Shown: one piece after another, positions 16,461 through 28,225 of the stretch
Position numbering within the stretch: position 1 is the first letter of the stretch
How the letters are laid out: each line of letters opens with the position of its first letter
Assembly: GCA_945875635.1 (NCBI GenBank)
Contig: CAMCLD010000003.1
Span: 62,651 to 126,650 of the forward strand
Direction of reading: 5' to 3'
DNA: 64,000 bases
DNA from: an uncultured Prevotella sp.
Lineage (GTDB): Bacteria > Bacteroidota > Bacteroidia > Bacteroidales > Bacteroidaceae
The notes under the pieces: generated by a model
Told to the model about the DNA's origin: nothing
What the model saw: the letters and a program-made list of their open reading frames with translations, nothing else
Databases searched by the model: none
Position numbers and translations under genes: made by a program

Positions 16461-18422
16461 ATGGATACAGAAAAGACAAGTCTCTTAGACAACAGCTACT
16501 CAAAAAAGAAAATGCTTGAGTTAGCTGTGATTTTGTTAGTGACAGCAGTAATATGGTGTCTTCCTCTTGACTCATTCGGAATAGAGGGACTTACAATCAT
16601 CCAACAGCGTGTAATTGCAATTTTTGTATTTGCCACCCTGTCATGGCTTACGGAAGCCATACCATCATGGGCGACATCGCTTGCCATCATCACAATAATG
16701 TGCTTTACGGTGTCAAACAACAGTCTGTCGTGCTTTAAGGAAACTTGTGCAAAACTGCAAGCAAACGACAAGGAACTGCAAGTTACAAAGGACATTAAGT
16801 TCACAAGCGGCATCTACGACTCTGACAAAATAGTGTTCGACAGGAACGAGAAGACTCTAATACTGAACGGCAAGAATATCATCATGAAACTGCCAGAGAT
16901 GAAAAAGGGTGAAACAGTGCTGGTGACATATCTCGCAAAGGAAGGAGAGAAAGGCTATTTGGCTGGCTCAAAGAACACCGTCGTTAAAGGCGGCAAGACA
17001 ACTGACGACAGCAAAACATTAATGGCAAGTGTCACAAAAGACGGCCCTGTTTACTTCACTACAAAAGGAGGAGCACTCCACCTGAAATCAATAGAACTGC
17101 TGGAAAGTAGTGGGAAAGACTCCAAGAGTGACAGGAAATGGGATTTTGAAGACATGAGTGATGATGACCTGCGCTCGCTTGCAGCAGACAACCAGACATG
17201 GATATGCAAAGACAACGCATACAGCAACAAGGACTTGATAGAAGGTGCAGATTTTGGTTCTGAGCTGAGCTCGACTGAAATTATGGCTACTTTCGCCAAT
17301 CCTGTAATCATGCTTTTCCTCGGAGGCTTTATCCTTGCCATTGCTGCAACAAAATCAGGACTTGACGTATTGCTGGCAAGAAGCCTTATAAAACCTTTCG
17401 GAAACAAGAGCGAGAATGTTCTGCTGGGCTTCCTCCTTATTACTGGAGTATTCTCTATGTTTGTATCCAACACCGCCACGGCTGCCATGATGCTTACATT
17501 CCTCACGCCAGTGTTCGCCGCTCTTCCAGCAAGCGGAAAAGGAAGGATTGCACTTACTCTGTGCATTCCTGTGGCAGCAAATATCGGTGGAATAGCAACA
17601 CCTATCGGTACTCCTCCCAATGCCATCGCCGTTCAGGCTCTCAACGACACGCTTCACATGAGCATTGGTTTTGGACAATGGATGATGGTCATGTTCCCAT
17701 TTGTCATCCTGATGCTTTTCATATCATGGTTTATCATCAAGAAACTCTTCCCATTCTCCAAAAAGACCATAGAACTTGACATTACAGGAAATGTACATAA
17801 AGGATGGAGAATGTGGGTCGTTTCCATAACATTCATCGTAACAATACTCATGTGGCTTCTTGACCGTGTCACAGGTGTTGACGCCAACACAGTGGCACTC
17901 ATACCAATGGGAGTATTCGCAATCACTGGTGTCATAACAGCAAAAGACCTTCAGTCTATTGACTGGAGCGTTATCTGGATGGTGGCAGGAGGATTCGCAC
18001 TCGGACTTGGACTTAACTCTTCAGGACTTGCCGCTGCGGCTATTGACTCTATACCATTCGCAAAATGGAGTCCGCTGATGATTTTGATAGCTTCAGGTCT
18101 TATCTGCTATGTTCTTTCAAACTTCATATCAAACACAGCCACAGCCGCACTTCTCGTGCCGATACTTGCAGTCGTATGTACTGGAATGGGAGACTTGCTT
18201 GGCTCTATAGGTGGTACCAGCACTATCATCATTGGTATTGCTTTGTCTGCATCAAGTGCCATGTGCCTTCCTATTTCCACACCTCCCAATGCCATTGCAT
18301 ACTCGACAGGACTTGTAAAACAGAACGACATGCTGAAAATAGGACTTATCATAGGTGTACTCTGCATGGTGATTGGTTATGGAATACTATATCTTGTAGG
18401 CATATCCCACTTGTTCGGATAA
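16461..18422 (+). CDS. DASS/SLC13 anion:sodium symporter with an inserted soluble domain
   Basis: WLTEAIP, MLFLGGF, VSNTATAAM, TPIGTPPNA, ISNTATAALLVP and ISTPPNAIAY motifs. A hydrophilic stretch spans about aa 93-265. Confidence 0.9.
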   Translation: MDTEKTSLLDNSYSKKKMLELAVILLVTAVIWCLPLDSFGIEGLTIIQQRVIAIFVFATLSWLTEAIPSWATSLAIITIMCFTVSNNSLSCFKETCAKLQANDKELQVTKDIKFTSGIYDSDKIVFDRNEKTLILNGKNIIMKLPEMKKGETVLVTYLAKEGEKGYLAGSKNTVVKGGKTTDDSKTLMASVTKDGPVYFTTKGGALHLKSIELLESSGKDSKSDRKWDFEDMSDDDLRSLAADNQTWICKDNAYSNKDLIEGADFGSELSSTEIMATFANPVIMLFLGGFILAIAATKSGLDVLLARSLIKPFGNKSENVLLGFLLITGVFSMFVSNTATAAMMLTFLTPVFAALPASGKGRIALTLCIPVAANIGGIATPIGTPPNAIAVQALNDTLHMSIGFGQWMMVMFPFVILMLFISWFIIKKLFPFSKKTIELDITGNVHKGWRMWVVSITFIVTILMWLLDRVTGVDANTVALIPMGVFAITGVITAKDLQSIDWSVIWMVAGGFALGLGLNSSGLAAAAIDSIPFAKWSPLMILIASGLICYVLSNFISNTATAALLVPILAVVCTGMGDLLGSIGGTSTIIIGIALSASSAMCLPISTPPNAIAYSTGLVKQNDMLKIGLIIGVLCMVIGYGILYLVGISHLFG

Positions 18423-18544: not shown

Positions 18545-19162
18545 TTATAGGTTGAATGCATATTTTACAGTCTCATACACCTCGAGAAACATCATAAGGA
18601 CAGGAATCAAAGGTGCAACACAACGTATGCCCCAGACTATAGCATTGAATATGGAAGTGATATTACCAAAGGTTCCACAAATAACGCCATAGGAAATAGA
18701 ACATACTGCAACCGTTGCCGTGAGTGTTGAAACTATCGATTTTGAGAATGGACCAGGAAAGAGATCTCCATTGACATTGGCAAGAACAGCATGTGGCAAG
18801 CATGTAAGGAGAAACATCATCACCATAACTATAACCATCTCTCCAAAAACTATTCGCAGAGCCAGTTTGTGCTGGAAGAGGAAGGGTTTCCTAACATCAT
18901 CTCTATTCTTCCCAAAAGATAGCAGGCCGCTTTTAACCAATAGACCAAGACCAACAGACAACAATAACAGCCATGCCAGAGGCTCTGAAATAACATTGGA
19001 CACAGAAGTGGCAAACAACCATCTCACTCCATCGCTTCCCATAAGGGAATTGACAGAAAGGTCTGGTCGAAGAGTGCTTATCATCCATGAAAGAATTATG
19101 ACAAACAACTCAAGGCATATTAGCGACACAAACGAATAAGTCAGAATCCTGTTAGTCTTCAT
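18545..19162 (-). CDS. Short AbgT-like membrane protein
   Basis: VNSLMGSDGVRWLF...PLAWLLLLSVGLGLLVKSGL resembles the AbgT N-terminal motif; LFPGPF..SIV; about 5 hydrophobic segments; 205 aa. Confidence 0.6.
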   Translation of the reverse strand: MKTNRILTYSFVSLICLELFVIILSWMISTLRPDLSVNSLMGSDGVRWLFATSVSNVISEPLAWLLLLSVGLGLLVKSGLLSFGKNRDDVRKPFLFQHKLALRIVFGEMVIVMVMMFLLTCLPHAVLANVNGDLFPGPFSKSIVSTLTATVAVCSISYGVICGTFGNITSIFNAIVWGIRCVAPLIPVLMMFLEVYETVKYAFNL

Positions 19163-19877
19163 CGGGTTCGAGATTGTCTATATCTATAATCCTTAGCTCA
19201 AGTGCTCTTACGACAAGACGCGTTGCATTTATATTCATTCCGCCATTGCCATTTGGAAACAGTTTCTGAGACAACTCGTTTTGGCGTTTCTCAAGACTCT
19301 TGACACCGAATGGCATACCTCGAAGATTGGTAATCTGCTCCTTTGTATATCCAAGAGCAAGATGACGCAGGAATCGCTCGTCATATTCGTCTATCTCATA
19401 TTCAACCATCGCTTCCTGATGCATCAACTGCGAGCCTACACTCTGCTTGAATCTGTTGACTATACGTTCAAGAATAGGCTGATTGAATACAAGACGCTTT
19501 CCAGACATGACACTTGCGACATCTCCACGAGTTAGGAGTTCTCCACTCTTAAGACAAATGCCGTCAGCTCCAGCATCCAAGACATCAACCCATAGCTTTT
19601 CGTTAAGTATCTCACCTGTAAATATGAGTACTTTAATGGAAGGATAAGCATCCTTCGTCTGGCGACAAATCTCTACGCCAACAGTAGTGGAGCCTCCAAG
19701 TCCTAAATCTAGAAGGACAAGGTCTGGTTTCTGATGTCTAATGAGTTTCCAATAAGCTATCTCATTCTCTGCCGTGCCTATTATCTCTGCTTCCGGAATA
19801 TCATTTTTGAAAATTCCTTCCGTTCCTTTCAATTCCAGAGGTACATCCTCAACTATAATAACTTTGAATTTTTCCAT
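19152..19877 (-). CDS. Response regulator (REC plus NarL/LuxR-like output; DUF5932-type)
   Basis: IIVED, LVLLD57, T87 and K110 are intact; C-terminal RFLRHLALGYTKEQI helix-turn-helix-like region. Confidence 0.88.
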   Translation of the reverse strand: MEKFKVIIVEDVPLELKGTEGIFKNDIPEAEIIGTAENEIAYWKLIRHQKPDLVLLDLGLGGSTTVGVEICRQTKDAYPSIKVLIFTGEILNEKLWVDVLDAGADGICLKSGELLTRGDVASVMSGKRLVFNQPILERIVNRFKQSVGSQLMHQEAMVEYEIDEYDERFLRHLALGYTKEQITNLRGMPFGVKSLEKRQNELSQKLFPNGNGGMNINATRLVVRALELRIIDIDNLEPDED

Positions 19878-19898: not shown

Positions 19899-22800
19899 TC
19901 ACGTTATATCATTCTTTTTATACGGCAATGTGATTACCATCGACAGGCTTCCATCATCTGTTGACGAAGCGGAAATGCCACAACCTCTCATTCCTGTGCA
20001 CTCACCTATATCTCTGACTATCTGACGACAGATAAGGAAAGGTATATTATCCGCTATAGTGGTAAAAAGAGAAGATGCTTGTGATTCTGTAACTTTAATA
20101 TTGCTCATTTCTATTTCAACGCATACATACCTACCGCTGACTGATGACGAAATAACCATAGCCTCCTTATTGTCATTTCTTCGTTTAAACAGTTCGAACA
20201 AATAGCACAACATCTCCTCGTCTGCAAGAACTTTTTCCATTGTATCAGCCCCCTTCACAGGAATCTTCACCTTGTGGCATGTCGGTTTGATCGTGTCCAG
20301 TTGTCTCATTGCCTGCTGCGACAATATATGATACAATTCCTTATAATATGAAACAACCTCTACAACAGCCGTGTTGTCAACTTCCATATTGTCTATAAGC
20401 TGTCTGACTCGAGATGGATAATACATTGTCTCATGTTTTATGGTTGAGAGACAGTTATCCAAGACGCTATTGCTTACATACAAGCGTTCGTGTTCATAAC
20501 GAGCTCTATTGCACTCGTCCTTCATCAAATCTATTGCAGTCTGTGCATCCTCAAGCGTTGAGGCTGAAAGCCTTAGTTCTGACATGATTTTGCTTACAAC
20601 CTCACGTAATTCATCAGGGAAGTCATCAGAAGGAATTTTCTCCACTTCCCTTAGTTTGTCCGAGAGGGGAACATCGCTGTCAAGAATTCCATTTATAAGT
20701 TTCACCTTCTCAAGGCAGAATCTGTAGAATATGTGATGACGGTAATAAAGGAAATAATATGCTGGCACTATTGACAGGAAGAGCAATGCAAGGATTGCCA
20801 TCGTAATGTATTTGTTGGTCTCAGACTTGCTCATGACCCGACAATACTCACCGATGCTTGTATCTGCGGTCACCTCTCTGAATAGCTGGGTATATACCTT
20901 ATTATTATATCTATATAGTTGCCATTCATGAAGAGCAAGCGCCGCCACAGCCGTTTCGTTACGAACAGAAAGAACGACATTATAGTTTACCTTTACACCT
21001 TCGTGCAACCATTTTATCTCAGGTGGCACGGCTGTCACATCTCCATACATTCTCAAGAGACTTTTTTTGTCATCATGTGTCTTCAGATAAAACTTGTTCA
21101 AATAAGCAAGGCAACTATCTGCATAATGAAGAGCCTCTTCGTATCTTCCTTCAACATTGCAGGCATATACCGAATCTGCAAATTCCTCTATCTTACTTGC
21201 ATATAGGAAAGAAGGCGAAAGAAAAAGCAATATCGTAACAAGTTTACGCATACCACCTTTAGGAAGCCTGAAGAATAAGCGAGTACCTTTTCCCTTCTCA
21301 CTTTCTGCAGAAATCATGCAGACGTTGAATATCTTACTGATTTTCTTATATTTGTTTATTATTCCAAGACAGTTAAGAAGCCCAAAGCCATGTGATTTAG
21401 AGGAAGCGACGTCTGCAATATCTTCAGATGCATTAAGGATAGGCTTGTGGTCAAACAAAGTTGACAGTTTGTCACTTTCCATACCAACACCGTTGTCTGT
21501 CACAGATATTTCCACAAAGGAGTCTGTCTCACGTGCATCAACCTCCACGCGTCCATCCTTACCCGTAAATTTACGGGCATTGTCTGAAATAGTATTGAGC
21601 ATAAACAGAGTAAGAGCCTTGTCTGCCTTGACTATAACATCCGTGGGATGCACAACAAGCTCAACCCCTTTCAATTTGAATGACATCATGTTCCTGTTAA
21701 CAATATCAAACAATTCTTGCAAAGGGAAGCTCTCAATGTGAAGGCTCACTTTACCATGTCTCAACTTTATCCATGCCGTCAACACATCGTTGCATTCATT
21801 TATCTTGTCAACAAGCTCTTTCATGTATTCATAACGCTCGAGGCGTCTTTCTGCCGTAGCACGGTCCTTCTCTATACGGACTGTCTCATTAAGAATCCTG
21901 TCAATGAATGTACTTATATAATTAACAAGCGACATCTTTGCGCGTTGCTCCTCATGATACCGTTTCTGACTTACGACACTGGCTTGTATGCCATTATACT
22001 CATCTTCAAGCTCGCTTTTTTCTTCTTCAAGTTCAGATACTTTAGACAGGAATTTGTTTTCCCATCTTTTCAAAGGGTCTAAGAGTGGAGATATAGCATC
22101 CTTACGATAGTTCTTTTTTCTCAACCGGTCGAAAATAAGGAGCAATATAATCACAAGTATTGTCATTGTCGCAATAGCGGCAATCATCCAATTGAGCACG
22201 TTGGCTGTCCTGTCAAGTTGCGAGGCACGAGCCTCAAGGAACTTGTCCTGACGAGTCTCTTCCTGTAGGTCAAGATAGACATTCCTGTTATAGTCACTTG
22301 CCTGTTTGTTGTTTAGTGCTGAATACACGACACTGAGCTGCTCGCGTATGGATGCTATAAGGTCTGGTGCCTGCATTATTGCCTTGTTTGAATCGAGTGC
22401 TTTGTTAAGGCAGTAAAGAGCTGATTCATAATCATTAATCTGCCAGTAACATTGTGAGAGTGTCCTATACGCTCCTGCAATCTGATAGACATCACCATAT
22501 TTTTGGAAAATGCCCAACGAACGTTCTGCTAAATTTCCCGCAAGTAAAGTGTCGGGCATATAGTCAGTATTAATGTATGCAATGGCTGACAAGTTATTTT
22601 CAATAAGACTATCTCTAACAGAAGGTAGTATCAGATGCTCGCTAATTGCCTGTAGAGAATTTGCTTCCCAGAATGTGTATCCCTGCTTTTGTGCAATGGC
22701 ATAGCATTTGAGAAGATAGTCAAACTCCTGCTGATATACAGATTCCTGACTGCCTTTTGTAAGCAAGCCTCCGGAGCCAATCTGATAAAAGAAAGCAAGC

Positions 22801-23471
22801 TGCTGAGCCGTGTCAAGGGTTAAATAGTCTGTTTCCTCAATTATGTCCAATGCTTTTATTGACTGGGAAATCAGACCTATATAATAATAATAAGTTGAAG
22901 AGACAAGAGAAAATTCAGAAACGGCATAGGAAAGTCTCGTTTTCTGCCTCTCGGTTAGAATGTTGTAGTCTTTCCTAATCCTTGAGATACGTCTTTTTGC
23001 AGATTCATAACAATCATAGAAGTCCTTGTTATGTGATTCGCGCTGACAGAGACGCATCAACTGGACATCAGCTACCAAAAGCTCTATCTGGTTATCCGTA
23101 ATACTCTTTATGGTATCTATTTGTGAATATGCCTTATTATAGTTCATCTTAGAGATATTCACAAAAACAAGATTGTTCAATGCCTCTGCTGCACCACTAC
23201 CCTTTCCGGCTGTCGCTTCGTATGCACGGTTAGCATAGTGAAAGGTGGAATCAAGGTTCTTATAATGATAATGGTATGAGAGGTCGTTGTATTTATCCAC
23301 ATTTACCACATCATCGTCACTACATGAAACGAGAGAAGCAATGGCAAAGAAAAACAACAGATAAAGCACAAGGAGGTAAGACCTTGTAAACAAAAGCCTT
23401 ACCTCCGTAGTGCCATATTGAGATGCACTTAACCTCTTGCCTTCGCAATGTAACCAAGAGCCTCTGCGCAT
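19899..23471 (-). CDS. Tandem membrane sensor histidine kinase (DUF5112/DUF5113-type); start uncertain
   Basis: Lipobox-like LVSC50, TPR-like helical region, TM 425-447, HATPase motifs ([24 protein letters not shown]), second hydrophobic segment 741-758, TM 889-910, KHETMYYP, degenerate second HATPase fold. Confidence 0.82.
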
Positions 23472-24097
23472 TTATCGGAAATTGCTTTCCAGTCACCAGC
23501 TGCTACAACATCCTTCGGGAAAAGTTTGGAACCCATACCTACACAATAGACTCCTGCCTTTATCCATGATGTAAGATTCTCCTCGTCTGGAGACACGCCA
23601 CCTGTAACCATAAGTTTTGACCAAGGCATAGGGGCCTTGAGACCTTTAACCAATTTTGGACCAAGTACATCGCCAGGGAACACCTTGCACAAGTCACATC
23701 CCACTTCCTGTGCGAAACCAACCTCAGACACAGAACCGCAACCTGGAGTATATGGAACCAAACGACGGTTGCATATCTTAGCTATCTCTGGATTGAACAA
23801 CGGACCAACAACGAAACAAGCTCCCAACTGAATATATAAAGCAGCTGTGGCAGGATCAACAACAGAGCCTACACCGAGTGCAAGTTCCGGACATTCCTTG
23901 GCTGCAAACTTAACAACCTCTGCAAAGACCTCGTGTGCGAAATCTCCACGATTGGTGAACTCAAAAGCACGTACTCCTCCATCATAACAAGCTTTGACTA
24001 CATTCTTGGCAGTCTCAGCATCTTTGCTGTAGAAAACAGGAACCATGCCCGTACTTCCAATTTTTGAAAGAACTTCTATTTTATCAAATTTAGCCAT
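23429..24097 (-). CDS. eda: KDPG/KHG aldolase
   Basis: [36 protein letters not shown]. Confidence 0.95.
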
Positions 24098-24111
24098 AAA
24101 TTATGTTATTT

Positions 24112-24200
24112 TAGTTGACAAGTAAACAAGTTGACGAGTTGAGAAGTTATTACTTACTCTTGTCCTATTATCCTTGCTTGAATTATCAGCTCGTCAACTA
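24112..24200. repeat. 8-bp-period array with an inverted partner between kdgK and eda
   Basis: TTGACAAG TAAACAAG TTGACGAG TTGAGAAG (24115-24146). CTCGTCAACT (24190-24199) is the reverse complement of AGTTGACGAG (24129-24138). Confidence 0.7.
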
Positions 24201-24209
24201 ATTAATTAT

Positions 24210-25235
24210 TTATCTCTGAACGCGACCAGAAGCATCACCACCTGCAAGTGCCTCAACTTCAGATTTTGAAACCATATTGAAATCACCAGGGATAGTATGC
24301 TTAAGAGCGGATGCTGCAACTGCGAATTCAAGAGCTTTGCCTTGGTTGTCTGGATATGTTAACAATCCATGGATAAGACCGCCTGAGAAAGAGTCACCAC
24401 CTCCAACACGGTCGATAATCGGCATGATATCATAACGCTTGCTCTGATAGAATTCCTTGCCATCGTATATAAGAGCTTTCCATCCATTGTGTGTAGCAGA
24501 GAATGATTCGCGGAGAGTGGAAACGACATACTTGAAGCCAAACTCCTTCATCATGCCCTGGAATATTCCATAATATCCCTCTGCATCCGTCTTTCCACCC
24601 TCTACATCAGCCTCTGGCTTGAAGCCAAGACAAAGCTGGGCATCCTCTTCATTGCCAATACAAACATCAACATACTTCATGAGAGGTTTCATAATACTTT
24701 GGGCTTTTTCCGATGTCCACAACTTCTTACGGAAGTTAAGGTCAACAGAAACTGTAACGCCATGACGCTTTGCTGCCTCGCAAGCAAGCCTTGTCAATTC
24801 GGCTGCCTTGTCGCTAATTGCTGGAGTTATTCCGCTCCAATGGAACCAGTCTGCACCTTCCATTATAGCATCGAAATCGAAATCAGATGGGTCTGCCTCT
24901 GCTATAGAACTACCTGCCCTATCATACACAACCTTTGAAGGACGCATTGAAGCACCTGTCTCAAGGAAATAAATGCCAAGTCTATTGCCACCACGAGCCA
25001 CAAAGTCTGTATGCACTCCAAAACGACGGAGGGCATTCACAGCACACTGACCAATCTCGTGAGAAGGAACTTTACTAACAAAGTAAGCGTCATGACCATA
25101 ATTGGCAACACTTACTGCAACGTTAGCTTCGCCACCTCCATAAACAACATCGAAAAACTCGCTTTGAACAAATCTTTTCTGTCCTGGTGAAGAAAGCCTA
25201 AGCATTATCTCACCCAATGTAACAACTTTTGCCAT
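24210..25235 (-). CDS. kdgK: 2-keto-3-deoxygluconate kinase (PfkB family)
   Basis: GEIMLRLS, GGGEANVA, DLNFRKKLW, DRVGGGDSFSGG. Confidence 0.93.
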   Translation of the reverse strand: MAKVVTLGEIMLRLSSPGQKRFVQSEFFDVVYGGGEANVAVSVANYGHDAYFVSKVPSHEIGQCAVNALRRFGVHTDFVARGGNRLGIYFLETGASMRPSKVVYDRAGSSIAEADPSDFDFDAIMEGADWFHWSGITPAISDKAAELTRLACEAAKRHGVTVSVDLNFRKKLWTSEKAQSIMKPLMKYVDVCIGNEEDAQLCLGFKPEADVEGGKTDAEGYYGIFQGMMKEFGFKYVVSTLRESFSATHNGWKALIYDGKEFYQSKRYDIMPIIDRVGGGDSFSGGLIHGLLTYPDNQGKALEFAVAASALKHTIPGDFNMVSKSEVEALAGGDASGRVQR

Positions 25236-25385
25236 TTTTGTTTTGCTTTAAAATAATTAGTTTGTTATGTTTTAGATAAATAAATTCGTTAAGGTTATAT
25301 AAGTTTACGCTACAGGAGTATCTATCTTGCATTCAAACCTCAAGGAGTTGCAGAAAAAAACATAGTCCTTCCTCCTATCAGTGGA

Positions 25386-25393
25386 CAAAGGTA
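25386..25393 (-). promoter_or_regulatory. -7 promoter element for kdgK
   Basis: Minus-strand TACCTTTG. Confidence 0.55.
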
Positions 25394-25456
25394 ACAAAAA
25401 AAATCATTCTACGAAAGAAAACCCCAAAAAAAGACTTGACAGAGTAAAAATTTAGC

Positions 25457-25496
25457 ATTGTGATTTCGCACAATTCAACAATTATTAGTAATTTTG
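25457..25496 (+). promoter_or_regulatory. Palindromic operator candidate plus -7 element of the LacI-family gene
   Basis: ATTGTG-ATTTCG-CACAAT (25457-25474) and TAATTTTG (25489-25496). Confidence 0.45.
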
Positions 25497-25595
25497 CAGA
25501 AATGGTGCCTATTACATGACCTTGATTCATGCTTGTCACCAACAGTCAATGACAAGTTACAGGTGGAACATGAGCAATTGGATAAAAGAAACACA

Positions 25596-26660
25596 ATGAA
25601 AGAAAGAATTAGAATAAAAGATATCGCAATCAGGGCTGGTGTGTCTGTTGGTACTGTTGACAGAGTTTTGCACGACAGACCAAATGTTTCGAAACAGGCA
25701 AGGACAAAGGTAGAGAAAGCCTTGAAAGAGGTGAACTACCAGCCTAACATGTATGCGAGCGCACTTGCATACAACAAGGCATACACATTCTATTGCTTAC
25801 TTCCAAGTAACCAATATGAGACATATTGGGAAGAGATTGAACACGGTATAAGAAGGGCTGTGGATTTCAGACGCGACTTCCACGTTAAAGTAGTGACACT
25901 TTATTACCAAAGATTCAACAATGATTCTTTCCAAGAGCAATGTACCCAATGCCTTGAGGCTTGTCCAGATGGAGTCATCATGGTACCAACAGAATTGGAG
26001 ACAAGCATGCCCTTTGCCGAAAAGCTTAAAGAACGAAACATCCCTCTCATCCTCCTTGACTCATATATCCAGGAACTTGAACCTTTGGCATTTTTTGGAC
26101 AAGACTCATTCCATAGCGGTTGCTTTGCGGCTAAAATGCTGATGCTCATTGCACGTGGACAGAAAAGGATAATGCTTTTCAAGCAAACAATGCACGGAAG
26201 AGTTTCATCAAGGCAACAGTCAAACAGGGAAATAGGACTGCGCAACTATCTCAATGAAAATCATCCAGAAGTTGACATCGTTGAGTTAGACATTCCTATT
26301 GAGGAAGATAGAAGCAGATATGACGAACTAATGGAGAAGTTCTTTCTCGCCAATCCAGATATTAAGCATTGCATAACACTCAGTTCCAAAGCACATATAG
26401 TGGGTGACTTCTTGCTCCGCACCAACAGGAAGGATGTTCAAATTATGGGATATGATATCGTAGAGAAAAACGCGAAGTGCATGAATAAAGGTTCCATATC
26501 GTTCCTTATTGCACAGCATGCTTACATGCAAGGATTTTATTGCGTTGACGCACTCGTAAAACACAAAATTCTAAAAAAACAGATTGAACAAAAGAATTAC
26601 ATGCCTATTGAACTGATTTCTAAAGAGAACATTGCATTCTACCATAGGGAATCCATATAA
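25596..26660 (+). CDS. LacI-family transcriptional regulator
   Basis: IKDIAIRAGVSVGTVDRVLH helix-turn-helix, YQPN hinge, sugar-binding fold. Start placed at M35 of the tracked ORF. Confidence 0.92.
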   Translation: MKERIRIKDIAIRAGVSVGTVDRVLHDRPNVSKQARTKVEKALKEVNYQPNMYASALAYNKAYTFYCLLPSNQYETYWEEIEHGIRRAVDFRRDFHVKVVTLYYQRFNNDSFQEQCTQCLEACPDGVIMVPTELETSMPFAEKLKERNIPLILLDSYIQELEPLAFFGQDSFHSGCFAAKMLMLIARGQKRIMLFKQTMHGRVSSRQQSNREIGLRNYLNENHPEVDIVELDIPIEEDRSRYDELMEKFFLANPDIKHCITLSSKAHIVGDFLLRTNRKDVQIMGYDIVEKNAKCMNKGSISFLIAQHAYMQGFYCVDALVKHKILKKQIEQKNYMPIELISKENIAFYHRESI

Positions 26661-26728
26661 AAGGCATTCATAGAAAACATTAAAGTTTCACAAGCTAGAA
26701 TCAAAATAACCCTTTAAAAATTAATCTA

Positions 26729-28225
26729 ATGATACAAACAGAATTTATCAGAATCAATCCCGCAGACAGCGTAGTAGTATGCCTGCGAGCAATGTCGAAA
26801 GGAGAAATTATCAGCATTGACAATTTCAATGTCGAGCTTTTGCAGGACACACCTGCAGGTCACAAAGTATTGTTGAAAGACACTTCCAAAGGAGAAGATA
26901 TTATTAAATATGGTTACCCTATCGGACATGCAGCAGAAGACCTGAAAGCTGGAACATGGGTCAACGAGAACAATCTCAAGACAAATCTTGCTGGAACTCT
27001 CTCTTATGAGTATAATCCCGTTAATGAGACTCTAAACATAGCAAAGGAAGACAGGACGTTCAAAGGTTATGAGAGAAAGAATGGCGAGGTGGGTATAAGA
27101 AACGAGATATGGGTCGTACCTACAGTAGGTTGCGTTAATGGAATAGCAGAGAAACTTGTAGAGAAGCTTAAGGAGGAGACAAAGTGTGCTGGTATTGATG
27201 CTATCCATGCATGGCACCACAACTTTGGATGCTCACAACTAAGTGGAGACCATGAGAACACACGCAAGATTCTAAGAGACATCGTATTGCATCCTAATGC
27301 TGGAGGCGTGTTGGTTTTGGGACTTGGATGTGAGAACAACCAACCGGATGACTTTATGCAAACCCTTGGCGACTATGACAATGAGAGAATAAAGCTGATG
27401 GTTTCACAAAAAGTTGAAGGTGACGAAATTGAAGAAGGAATGAAAATCCTTCGCAACATATACAAGATTGCCTCTACTGACAAGAGAACAGATGTCCCCT
27501 TAAGCAAATTGCGTATTGGTTTAAAATGTGGTGGCAGTGACGGCTTCAGCGGAATCACAGCCAATCCTTTAGTAGGAGAACTGTCTGATTACATAGTAGC
27601 TCAGGGCGGAACGTCAATTCTTACAGAGGTTCCAGAAATGTTTGGAGCAGAAACAATACTAATGAATAGGTGTGAGAACAAGGATTTGTTCAACGATACT
27701 GTGTCACTAATAAATAACTTCAAGGATTATTTCCTTTCCCACGGAGAGCCAGTTGGAGAGAATCCTTCACCCGGCAATAAGGCAGGTGGCATTTCAACTC
27801 TTGAGGATAAAGCATTGGGATGTACACAGAAATGCGGAAGGGCTCCTGTCAGTGGTGTTCTTGAATATGGTGACAGACTTAAGAACAACGGTCTTAACCT
27901 GCTATCCGCTCCTGGCAACGACCTTGTCGCATCGACTGCTCTTGCCTCTGCCGGATGCCAGATTGTTTTGTTCACCACAGGAAGAGGCACACCATTCGGT
28001 ACGTTTGTGCCGACAATGAAAATATCCACAAACAGTCTTCTCGCATCAAGGAAATCGAACTGGATTGATTTCAACGCTGGTGTACTTGCAGAGGGCATGG
28101 ATATGAAAGAGCTTCTTCGTCAGTTTATTGAAAAAGTAATATCTGTGGCAAGTGGCGAACTTACACGCAACGAAGAGAATGGTTATCGCGAGATTTCTAT
28201 CTTCAAGAATGGTGTGACGCTATAA
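26729..28225 (+). CDS. uxaA: Altronate dehydratase (UxaA family)
   Basis: SAF domain (PAGHKV, IIKYG), GIRNE, HNFGCSQL, GLGCENN, LKCGGSDGFSGITANP, FTTGRGTP. Confidence 0.93.
   Translation: MIQTEFIRINPADSVVVCLRAMSKGEIISIDNFNVELLQDTPAGHKVLLKDTSKGEDIIKYGYPIGHAAEDLKAGTWVNENNLKTNLAGTLSYEYNPVNETLNIAKEDRTFKGYERKNGEVGIRNEIWVVPTVGCVNGIAEKLVEKLKEETKCAGIDAIHAWHHNFGCSQLSGDHENTRKILRDIVLHPNAGGVLVLGLGCENNQPDDFMQTLGDYDNERIKLMVSQKVEGDEIEEGMKILRNIYKIASTDKRTDVPLSKLRIGLKCGGSDGFSGITANPLVGELSDYIVAQGGTSILTEVPEMFGAETILMNRCENKDLFNDTVSLINNFKDYFLSHGEPVGENPSPGNKAGGISTLEDKALGCTQKCGRAPVSGVLEYGDRLKNNGLNLLSAPGNDLVASTALASAGCQIVLFTTGRGTPFGTFVPTMKISTNSLLASRKSNWIDFNAGVLAEGMDMKELLRQFIEKVISVASGELTRNEENGYREISIFKNGVTL

Follow-up and report, generated by a model that had tools for sequence, protein, structure and literature searches.

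A single-chain tandem histidine kinase of the Bacteroidaceae with a proposed division of ATP binding and phosphoacceptor histidine between two homologous cores

In the FasB/FasC/FasA system of Streptococcus pyogenes, FasB and FasC heterodimerize through their dimerization and histidine phosphotransfer (DHp) domains; FasB gives the kinase domain, while FasC, a proposed pseudokinase, supplies the essential histidine, H246, from which the phosphoryl group passes to one aspartate of the regulator (PMC12675982). In Rhodobacter sphaeroides, CheA3 and CheA4 constitute a split kinase, with ATP binding and the acceptor histidine on separate modules that need to form a complex (PMC3591291). Here, we describe a gene in which these two functions appear to be divided between the halves of one polypeptide. 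The gene lies at positions 19899–23471 (minus strand) of a 64,000-nucleotide stretch of DNA, referred to below as the window, from an uncultured Prevotella sp. (GenBank assembly GCA_945875635.1, contig CAMCLD010000003.1, positions 62,651 to 126,650 of the forward strand), and encodes a tandem sensor kinase with two kinase cores. The reading that we favor, and to which we assign a probability of roughly 0.7, is that of a single-chain asymmetric kinase, in which the catalytic and ATP-binding (CA) domain of the first half (CA1) would phosphorylate a histidine of the second half, H1013, within a bundle formed by the DHp domains of both halves (DHp1 and DHp2), after which the phosphoryl group would pass to D57 of the adjacent response regulator.

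The functional likeness to FasB/FasC is that one partner gives the kinase domain and the other gives the histidine. Fas, however, consists of two proteins from two genes, whereas here there is one four-pass chain; FasB keeps a histidine (H284), whereas here both halves are degenerate in complementary ways, and are so across a whole bacterial family; and the Fas regulator is ComE-like, whereas the regulator here is NarL-like with a DUF5932 output domain. With CheA3/CheA4, the protein shares the location of the ATP site and the histidine on different modules. Those, however, are two separate soluble proteins of the CheA class, with the histidine on a P1 domain of the histidine-containing phosphotransfer (HPt) type and not on a DHp domain. 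Their free and complexed forms can differ, which is the basis of a bistability argument (PMC3591291), whereas the covalent fusion here fixes the ratio at 1:1. Split kinases in the sense of Amin, Porter and Soyer (2013) require two distinct proteins, and the present protein is not a member of that group because it is encoded by one open reading frame (ORF). Nor could the modules be separated at an internal lipobox or a conserved internal start, neither of which is present in this orthologue. The chain would work like a split kinase without being one.

In Mycobacterium tuberculosis, according to 2007 work by Shrivastava et al., the ATP-binding domain reportedly belongs to HK1 (Rv0600c) and the phosphorylatable histidine to HK2 (Rv0601c). 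This HK1/HK2-TcrA system is listed in PMC9321153. Its kinase genes are adjacent and look like one kinase cut in two, whereas here the DHp and CA domains are each present twice, as the result of a tandem duplication. Conventional homodimeric histidine kinases are known to work asymmetrically, and hemiphosphorylated CpxA (5lfk) was among the fold matches described below. The present protein resembles HK853, CpxA, WalK and EnvZ in having a DHp hairpin and a CA fold in both units and transmembrane (TM) and stalk helices in register, but its asymmetry is fixed in the sequence: each pseudo-dimer has a single ATP site and a single histidine, and its two periplasmic domains differ from each other. In double sensor kinases of the TodS/TmoS kind, which are soluble, one polypeptide carries two complete cores together with an internal receiver and a phosphorelay; the present chain likewise has two kinase cores, but both are incomplete and the chain contains no receiver domain. 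In function, the nearest systems described so far consist of two proteins. What is new is that two kinase cores with complementary losses are joined covalently in tandem and threaded through the membrane.

Residue numbers throughout refer to the frame of 1190 codons, which is uninterrupted over the whole of positions 19899–23471. The protein belongs to the Pfam DUF5112/DUF5113 family, with both domains above their gathering scores and in the same order as in relatives: DUF5112 at residues 58–323 (348.5 bits), TPR at 310–361, HATPase_c at 624–738 (E = 1.6e-13) and DUF5113 at 759–911 (201.4 bits). Pfam detected neither HisKA nor Response_reg anywhere in the 1190-residue protein, which on the latter count is not a hybrid histidine kinase, and NCBIfam gave only sub-threshold matches, to many kinases, for residues ≈540–740. 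The topology was derived from hydropathy and from a full-length AlphaFold model with a mean predicted local distance difference test score (pLDDT) of 83.8. It runs from DUF5112/TPR through a TM helix, kinase core 1 (residues 467–738), a TM helix, DUF5113 and another TM helix to kinase core 2 (residues 953–1184). Unit 1, comprising periplasmic domain 1, TM2, DHp1 and CA1, would supply the ATP-binding domain and no phosphorylatable histidine, and unit 2, comprising TM3, periplasmic domain 2, TM4, DHp2 and CA2, would supply the H-box acceptor, H1013.

In core 1, the DHp1 hairpin (positions 21765–22073, minus strand, as are all features of the gene) consists of a helix at residues 467–535, a turn, and a helix at residues 540–569; it is without an acceptor histidine and has Thr at 521 and Asn at 528. 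It is followed by CA1 (residues 578–738; 21258–21740), an intact ATP-binding domain with the N-box NTISDN631ARKF, the G1 box D659NGVG663, the G2 box H694GFGL698, including G695 and G697, and the motif GKGT at residues 727–730, including G727 and G729. In core 2, the DHp2 hairpin (20295–20615), made up of helix 953–1027 with a kink at 1016 and helix 1033–1059, carries the invariant H-box LSTIKH1013ETMYYP, in which the codon for the histidine occupies nucleotides 20433–20435. CA2 (residues 1066–1184; 19920–20276) is a degenerate CA-like alpha/beta sandwich that has no N, G1 or G2 box and a shortened lid. Of the two defining parts of a class I kinase, the DHp hairpin with a conserved H-box histidine is therefore found in unit 2 only, where KHETMYYP lies on helix 1 of the predicted hairpin, and the Bergerat fold with N, G1 and G2 boxes in unit 1 only, unit 2 having the fold without the boxes. 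An earlier note on this DNA, made from the letters alone, had described the unit-1 motifs and the H-box at these positions, TM helices at 425–447 and 889–910, a DHp-like helix without an H-box and with H506 upstream of it, and degenerate stretches at the N-box and G2 places of unit 2; our reading of the sequence agreed on all of these, and places the DHp-like helix, which carries no histidine, at 510–529.

Conservation was assessed in three sets of sequences: 118 homologues with 44–55% identity; 19 orthologues with 28–48% identity, which came from whole genomes of other genera in the family and were picked by ORF length only; and 372 database proteins of more than 1000 residues, taken without motif selection. 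Among the 118 homologues, N631, D659, G661, G663, G697, H1013, E1014 and P1019 were invariant, while position 506 was Asn in 96. Each of the 19 orthologues had one DxGxG, in unit 1, and the unit-2 box LDNCLS.[IL]KHE..YYP, and in none of them did unit 2 have the Asn of the N-box, a DxGxG or a G2 loop rich in glycine. In the largest set, N631, D659, G661, G663 and G697 were present in 372/372 sequences and H1013, E1014 and P1019 in 371/371, the remaining sequence being gapped there. Six loci that failed a strict motif filter keep the histidine, as KHEAMYYP, KHETMFYP or KHETMYFP. The unit-1 hairpin contained no conserved histidine across the 372 homologues: position 521 is Pro in 366 (Thr here), and position 528 is Asn in 209, His in 105 and another residue in 58 (Asn here). 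H506, proposed in the earlier note to be variable, is Asn in 317 of the 372 and His in 12, and is thereby ruled out as the acceptor; the predicted invariance of H1013 and of the unit-1 N and G boxes, and the absence of unit-2 G boxes from every orthologue examined, were likewise borne out by the alignments. Since Pfam finds HATPase_c only in unit 1 and HisKA nowhere, and the pattern is kept family-wide, the distribution of motifs is not due to chance.

The most conserved segment of the kinase is helix 1 of DHp2, whose mean column identity is 0.91 in the alignment of close homologues and 0.81 in that of distant homologues, compared to 0.50 for CA2. Judged by its residues, CA2 is unable to bind ATP in the usual way. 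It does keep the segment LICRQIVRD...RGCGI (residues 1148–1168), with C1164 in 20/20 sequences of a diverse-genus alignment. Because this segment is conserved and shows the strongest covariation between CA and DHp domains (see below), it is presumably selected for something other than ATP binding.

The two units are homologous: hhalign aligned residues 470–745 with 940–1190 over 183 columns with a probability of 92.9% (E = 3.7e-7), setting the N-box, G1 and G2 regions of unit 1 against the degenerate stretches of unit 2. An AlphaFold model of unit 2 alone, calculated from a 79-sequence alignment (pLDDT 90.8), showed a long helical hairpin that leads into an alpha/beta sandwich. In Foldseek, this model matched the DHp–CA cores of KdpD, WalK/YycG, an EnvZ chimera, ZraS, CpxA and HK853, with a probability of 1.00 and E = 1e-7 to 1e-5 over 220–240 columns, at 10–13% identity. 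Sequence searches of the PDB with unit 2, whether with the single sequence or with a 79-sequence profile, returned no kinase, and the relationship was found by fold search alone. Unit 1, by comparison, matches HK853, ZraS and WalK both by sequence profile and by fold. In CA2, the stretch from the last strands to the long helix is short (1126–1140) compared to CA1, which has a 35-residue ATP lid of low confidence (660–695).

The level of H1013 in unit 1 was placed in several ways. In hhalign, N528-E529 align with H1013-E1014, with low column confidence. With HMMER, the family profile aligned to the PDB kinase 7z8n places the canonical histidine opposite position 521. The turns in the AlphaFold model, at 536–539 in unit 1 and 1028–1032 in unit 2, give an offset of ≈492, which is also the one obtained from covariation. 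This puts H1013 level with residue 521, and residue 528 corresponds to His+7, a position that is often Thr or Asn in canonical kinases. H528 is ruled out as an acceptor in this protein, which has Asn there, and is unlikely to serve as one generally, since the register puts it at His+7. Residue 528 (nucleotides 21888–21890) is itself variable, being Asn in 56% of the homologues, His followed by an invariant Glu in 28%, and other residues in the remainder, with His concentrated in Prevotella-type sequences. It may be a regulatory residue.

For the analysis of covariation, 515 family sequences were gathered and aligned to the profiles of both units. Direct coupling analysis (DCA) was carried out on 514 of these (effective number of sequences, Meff, 300) with the mean-field method, 80% reweighting and the Frobenius norm with average product correction (APC), using columns 470–575 and 950–1062. 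As a control, pairs within the hairpins were recovered at residue sums (i+j) of ≈1075–1080 in unit 1 (529-546, 533-543, 519-558 and 526-554) and ≈2061–2069 in unit 2 (1015-1051, 1016-1053 and 1007-1054). The top scores of all, 2.1–2.45, were inter-unit. Helix 1 of DHp1 was coupled in an antiparallel manner to helix 2 of DHp2 (530-1040, 517-1055, 516-1051, 512-1053, 510-1062, 513-1058, 526-1039 and 534-1037; i+j = 1565–1572), helix 2 of DHp1 was coupled to helix 1 of DHp2 (555-1023, 565-1016, 564-1012 and 571-998), and the stalks were coupled in parallel (499-990, 492-983, 501-994, 503-996, 481-980 and 471-961; j−i = 490–499). The inter-unit sum of 1571 lies midway between the sums of the two hairpins, as expected for two in-register hairpins in one four-helix bundle. 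When the pairing of unit 1 with unit 2 was shuffled between sequences, the top inter-unit score dropped from 2.45 to at most 1.03. The earlier note had suggested that the polypeptide acts as a pseudo-heterodimer of its two units, and the covariation supports this, with the two DHp hairpins predicted to pack as a hetero four-helix bundle in which the units stand in for two protomers.

A hypergeometric test for enrichment of top pairs in these bands was discarded, as shuffled alignments also put ≈40% of the weak top pairs there, reflecting column variability. In the test that replaced it, the bands were fixed beforehand from the AlphaFold turns (i+j = 1567.5 ± 8; j−i = 492.5 ± 8), and the reciprocal-best inter-unit pairs were counted and compared with those obtained after row permutation of the partners. 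Of 56 such pairs, 26 fell within the bands, compared to 13.2 expected by permutation (P = 1e-4); for pairs scoring ≥1.2, the count was 13 of 21 (P = 0.0013). The sequences were also divided by protein length into two subsets, a two-cluster split of the alignment having isolated one outlier only and therefore been dropped. In the Prevotella-type subset (Meff 213), the top pairs were unchanged and P was 0.014; in the Bacteroides-type subset (Meff 88), P was 0.004. Since the enrichment holds in both subfamilies separately, deep phylogeny is not its cause. With APC-corrected mutual information, 15 of the top 25 inter-unit pairs were in the bands, and the pair tables showed compensation of size or charge, with V-V, I-A and L-A at 530-1040, D-R, D-K and T-K at 555-1023, and T-M and A-I at 565-1016.

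When the CA domains were included, the strongest CA–DHp couplings were also cross-unit. Helix 1 of DHp1 (503–514) was coupled to the two long helices of CA2, with 509-1156 (2.54) followed by 507-1154, 504-1093, 507-1147 and 507-1087, while the couplings between CA1 and DHp2 were weaker (590-1021, 600-1046, 605-1002 and 657-999). Such cross-unit couplings fit the bundle, since the point at which each CA domain departs from helix 2 of its unit is beside helix 1 of the partner. CA2 has probably been retained because it clamps DHp1 structurally. For the inter-unit block that covers the membrane and periplasmic parts, the best diagonal was exactly 461, which is the homologous offset. TM2 (residues 425–447; 22131–22199) is coupled in register with TM4 (residues 889–910; 20742–20807) through pairs on one helical face (426-887, 429-890, 436-897 and 443-903), and 12 of the 58 reciprocal-best pairs in this block were in band (P = 0.018). 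The TM2–TM4 and periplasmic couplings suggest that the two periplasmic domains form one paired sensor, rather than sensing different signals.

In the mechanism that we propose, DHp1 and DHp2 would form one hetero four-helix bundle in register, with TM2 paired with TM4, and the chain would mimic a conventional kinase homodimer with a single active site. A signal-dependent shift of the paired TM and stalk helices would let CA1 phosphorylate H1013, and transfer from H1013 to D57 of the regulator, a receiver–DUF5932 protein, would alter transcription. Several points weigh against this mechanism. The evidence for the hetero-bundle is covariation, and the predicted template modeling (pTM) score of the full-length AlphaFold model was just 0.56. 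An Meff of ≈300 is low for DCA, and with the bias of the first enrichment test corrected, the P values are moderate. Couplings between homologous positions, as in the parallel band and in TM2–TM4, could in principle reflect shared constraints and not contact. Covariation looks the same for a bundle within one chain and for a swap between two chains. The gap between the last strand of CA1 and TM3 is only 3–4 residues, a tether that limits the reach of CA1 to H1013. The usual partners of NarL-like regulators are HisKA_3 kinases, and not kinases with a HisKA-like box. Finally, ≈30% of the homologues have His-Glu at 528, which one alignment pairs with H1013, and this might be a second acceptor in some orthologues.

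A further step, which we take tentatively and at somewhat under even odds, is that the kinase is complete as a monomer, with an intramolecular hetero-bundle, one ATP site (CA1), one acceptor (H1013), a dead CA2 clamping DHp1, and the two non-identical TPR-like periplasmic domains paired across a pseudo-two-fold axis. If so, signaling could occur without dimerization, and two different periplasmic inputs could be compared. How work is divided between kinase protomers is a long-standing question, including whether phosphorylation occurs in cis or in trans and why the CA domains are active only one at a time. Protomer roles are hard to study because the halves of a homodimer are identical. In this natural single-chain version, each function is on one half only, and every mutation is therefore protomer-specific. 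The predicted contact pairs offer direct and cheap tests of the model.

An alternative to the hetero-bundle is a conventional homodimer with stacked homobundles, DHp1:DHp1′ and DHp2:DHp2′, in which CA1 would reach H1013 through space, as CheA P4 does with P1; the complementary loss of motifs would still be real. Histidine kinases are normally homodimers, and DCA cannot separate intra-unit contacts between two chains from contacts within a hairpin; the low pTM of the full-length model is also in keeping with such an arrangement. However, the strongest stalk couplings are inter-unit and on the register of one bundle, and the CA2–DHp1 and TM2–TM4 cross-unit couplings fit the geometry of the hetero-bundle. 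We therefore consider the homodimer with stacked homobundles unlikely.

It is also conceivable that unit 2 is a pseudokinase serving only as a phosphatase or scaffold for the regulator, that the regulator is phosphorylated by another kinase or by acetyl phosphate, and that the unit-1 ATPase is regulatory and makes no transfer to H1013. Pseudokinases that keep DHp functions do exist, such as DivL and RetS, both of which were among the fold matches of unit 1, and the residue at His+4, where the canonical phosphatase Thr or Asn would be, is Tyr in HETMY, pointing to an unusual box chemistry. Such a role is nevertheless improbable given the absolute invariance, in one polypeptide, of H1013, E1014 and all the catalytic motif residues of CA1, the covariation between DHp1 and DHp2, and the presence of one such gene per genome in tight linkage to one regulator. 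That unit 1 is self-sufficient and autophosphorylates a non-canonical residue (H528 in the homologues that have it, or a Tyr, Ser or Thr, for example T521), perhaps relaying to H1013, is very improbable: the H528-E529 pair of 105/372 homologues, its pairing with H1013-E1014 in hhalign, and the Tyr known at the acceptor site of DivL, a fold match, speak for it, but this protein has N528 and T521, most genera have Asn at 528, position 521 is nearly always Pro, and both the DCA offset and the HMMER alignment to PDB kinases set the acceptor level at 521.

A single uninterrupted ORF holds both modules here and in ≈159 orthologous loci. An assembly or fusion artefact is ruled out, since hundreds of species have the ORF in intact form. 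From the first ATG, the protein has 1190 residues, but translation probably starts at a TTG at residue 27 (nucleotide 23393), giving 1164 residues, since a 99%-identical database protein has 1164 residues and begins MFTRSYLL. This start also removes the overlap of the kinase ORF with the upstream gene for 2-keto-3-deoxy-6-phosphogluconate (KDPG) aldolase. Residues 27–50 (23322–23393) form a lipoprotein-type N-terminal signal or anchor, with the lipobox LVSC50 followed by SDDD, and a lipobox is present at the N-terminus in 100 of the 118 close homologues. The first membrane anchor of the kinase may thus be a lipidated Cys instead of a TM helix.

Periplasmic domain 1 (residues 51–424; 22200–23321) is all-helical and TPR-like, comprising DUF5112, TPR and a partial DUF5113-like end, where the DUF5113 model also matches residues 364–447, i.e., the end of the domain together with TM2. 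Periplasmic domain 2 (residues 760–888; 20808–21194) is the all-helical DUF5113. In the orthologues from Bacteroides and Phocaeicola, which have 1400–1525 residues, DUF5113 is complete in both periplasmic parts. Because both parts carry DUF5113, the duplicated unit was DUF5113, TM, DHp and CA, with DUF5112 added N-terminally. The protein is four-pass because an extra membrane helix, TM3 (residues ≈742–759; 21195–21248), divides core 1 from the second periplasmic domain. TM3 is signal-peptide-like. In many Bacteroides/Phocaeicola-type orthologues, the equivalent helix ends in a lipobox-like ..SC, which may be a relic of the duplication. The Prevotella protein has no lipobox and no Cys after TM3, and a lipobox-like motif occurs there in only ≈12 of the 118 Prevotella-type homologues; a reading of the chain as a polyprotein cut at this site is therefore rejected for the present protein.

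The gene for the cognate response regulator (19152–19877, minus strand) begins 21 nucleotides past the kinase stop. The regulator consists of a NarL/VraR-like receiver domain, nearest to VraR, DevR and NarL, and a DUF5932 output domain. In the receiver, D57, T87 and K110 are intact, as the earlier note had stated, and together with D11 they are invariant in 18 orthologues from different genera. Among 19 diverse loci, 17 have the regulator gene directly downstream of the kinase, and among 80 Prevotella-type loci, 79 do (96/99 in all). The regulator is 66–85% identical across genera, far above the kinase, with a mean column identity of 79% where the kinase is 28–48% identical. Helix 1 of DHp2, the most conserved segment of the kinase, would be the site at which the regulator docks. 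The output domain matches DUF5932 only, and a sequence search of the PDB found no solved structure that matched it; a possible LuxR-like helix-turn-helix is suggested by reading of the motif GYTKEQITNL...VKSLEKRQNEL. Overlapping the stop of the regulator gene is a gene for a 205-residue membrane protein (18545–19162, minus strand) that weakly resembles the central part of AbgT transporters. Since it is directly downstream in 78 of the 80 Prevotella-type loci, it constitutes the third gene of the module.

DUF5113 was found once in this genome. Of 251 genomes of the Bacteroidaceae, 196 had it, representing 31 of the 35 genera and nearly always with two matches per ORF, and the gene is single-copy in most members of the family. 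Bacteroides thetaiotaomicron, included as a named control, was positive. Among 300 other genomes sampled evenly across the phylum, none had DUF5113 above the cut-off, the genome of the window being the sole positive. Relatives of the same architecture number >6800, and a 50%-identity library contained 368 clusters at E <= 1e-30. The family is thus a nearly universal single-copy two-component system of the Bacteroidaceae (Prevotella, Bacteroides and Phocaeicola), which are dominant gut and rumen bacteria. The literature searched for DUF5112, DUF5113 and DUF5932 yielded only an unrelated mention, and no signal, regulon or name for the family.

Upstream of the kinase and on the same strand, the region at positions 23429–28225 of the window begins with genes for KDPG aldolase and 2-keto-3-deoxygluconate kinase; a LacI-type regulator gene, which is divergent, and an altronate-dehydratase-like gene come next. 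KDPG aldolase is the upstream neighbor of the kinase in 52 of the 80 Prevotella-type loci. On the other side of the module, at positions 16461–18422 on the plus strand, there is a gene for a DASS-type transporter, in which one loop has a hydrophilic insert of ≈170 residues.

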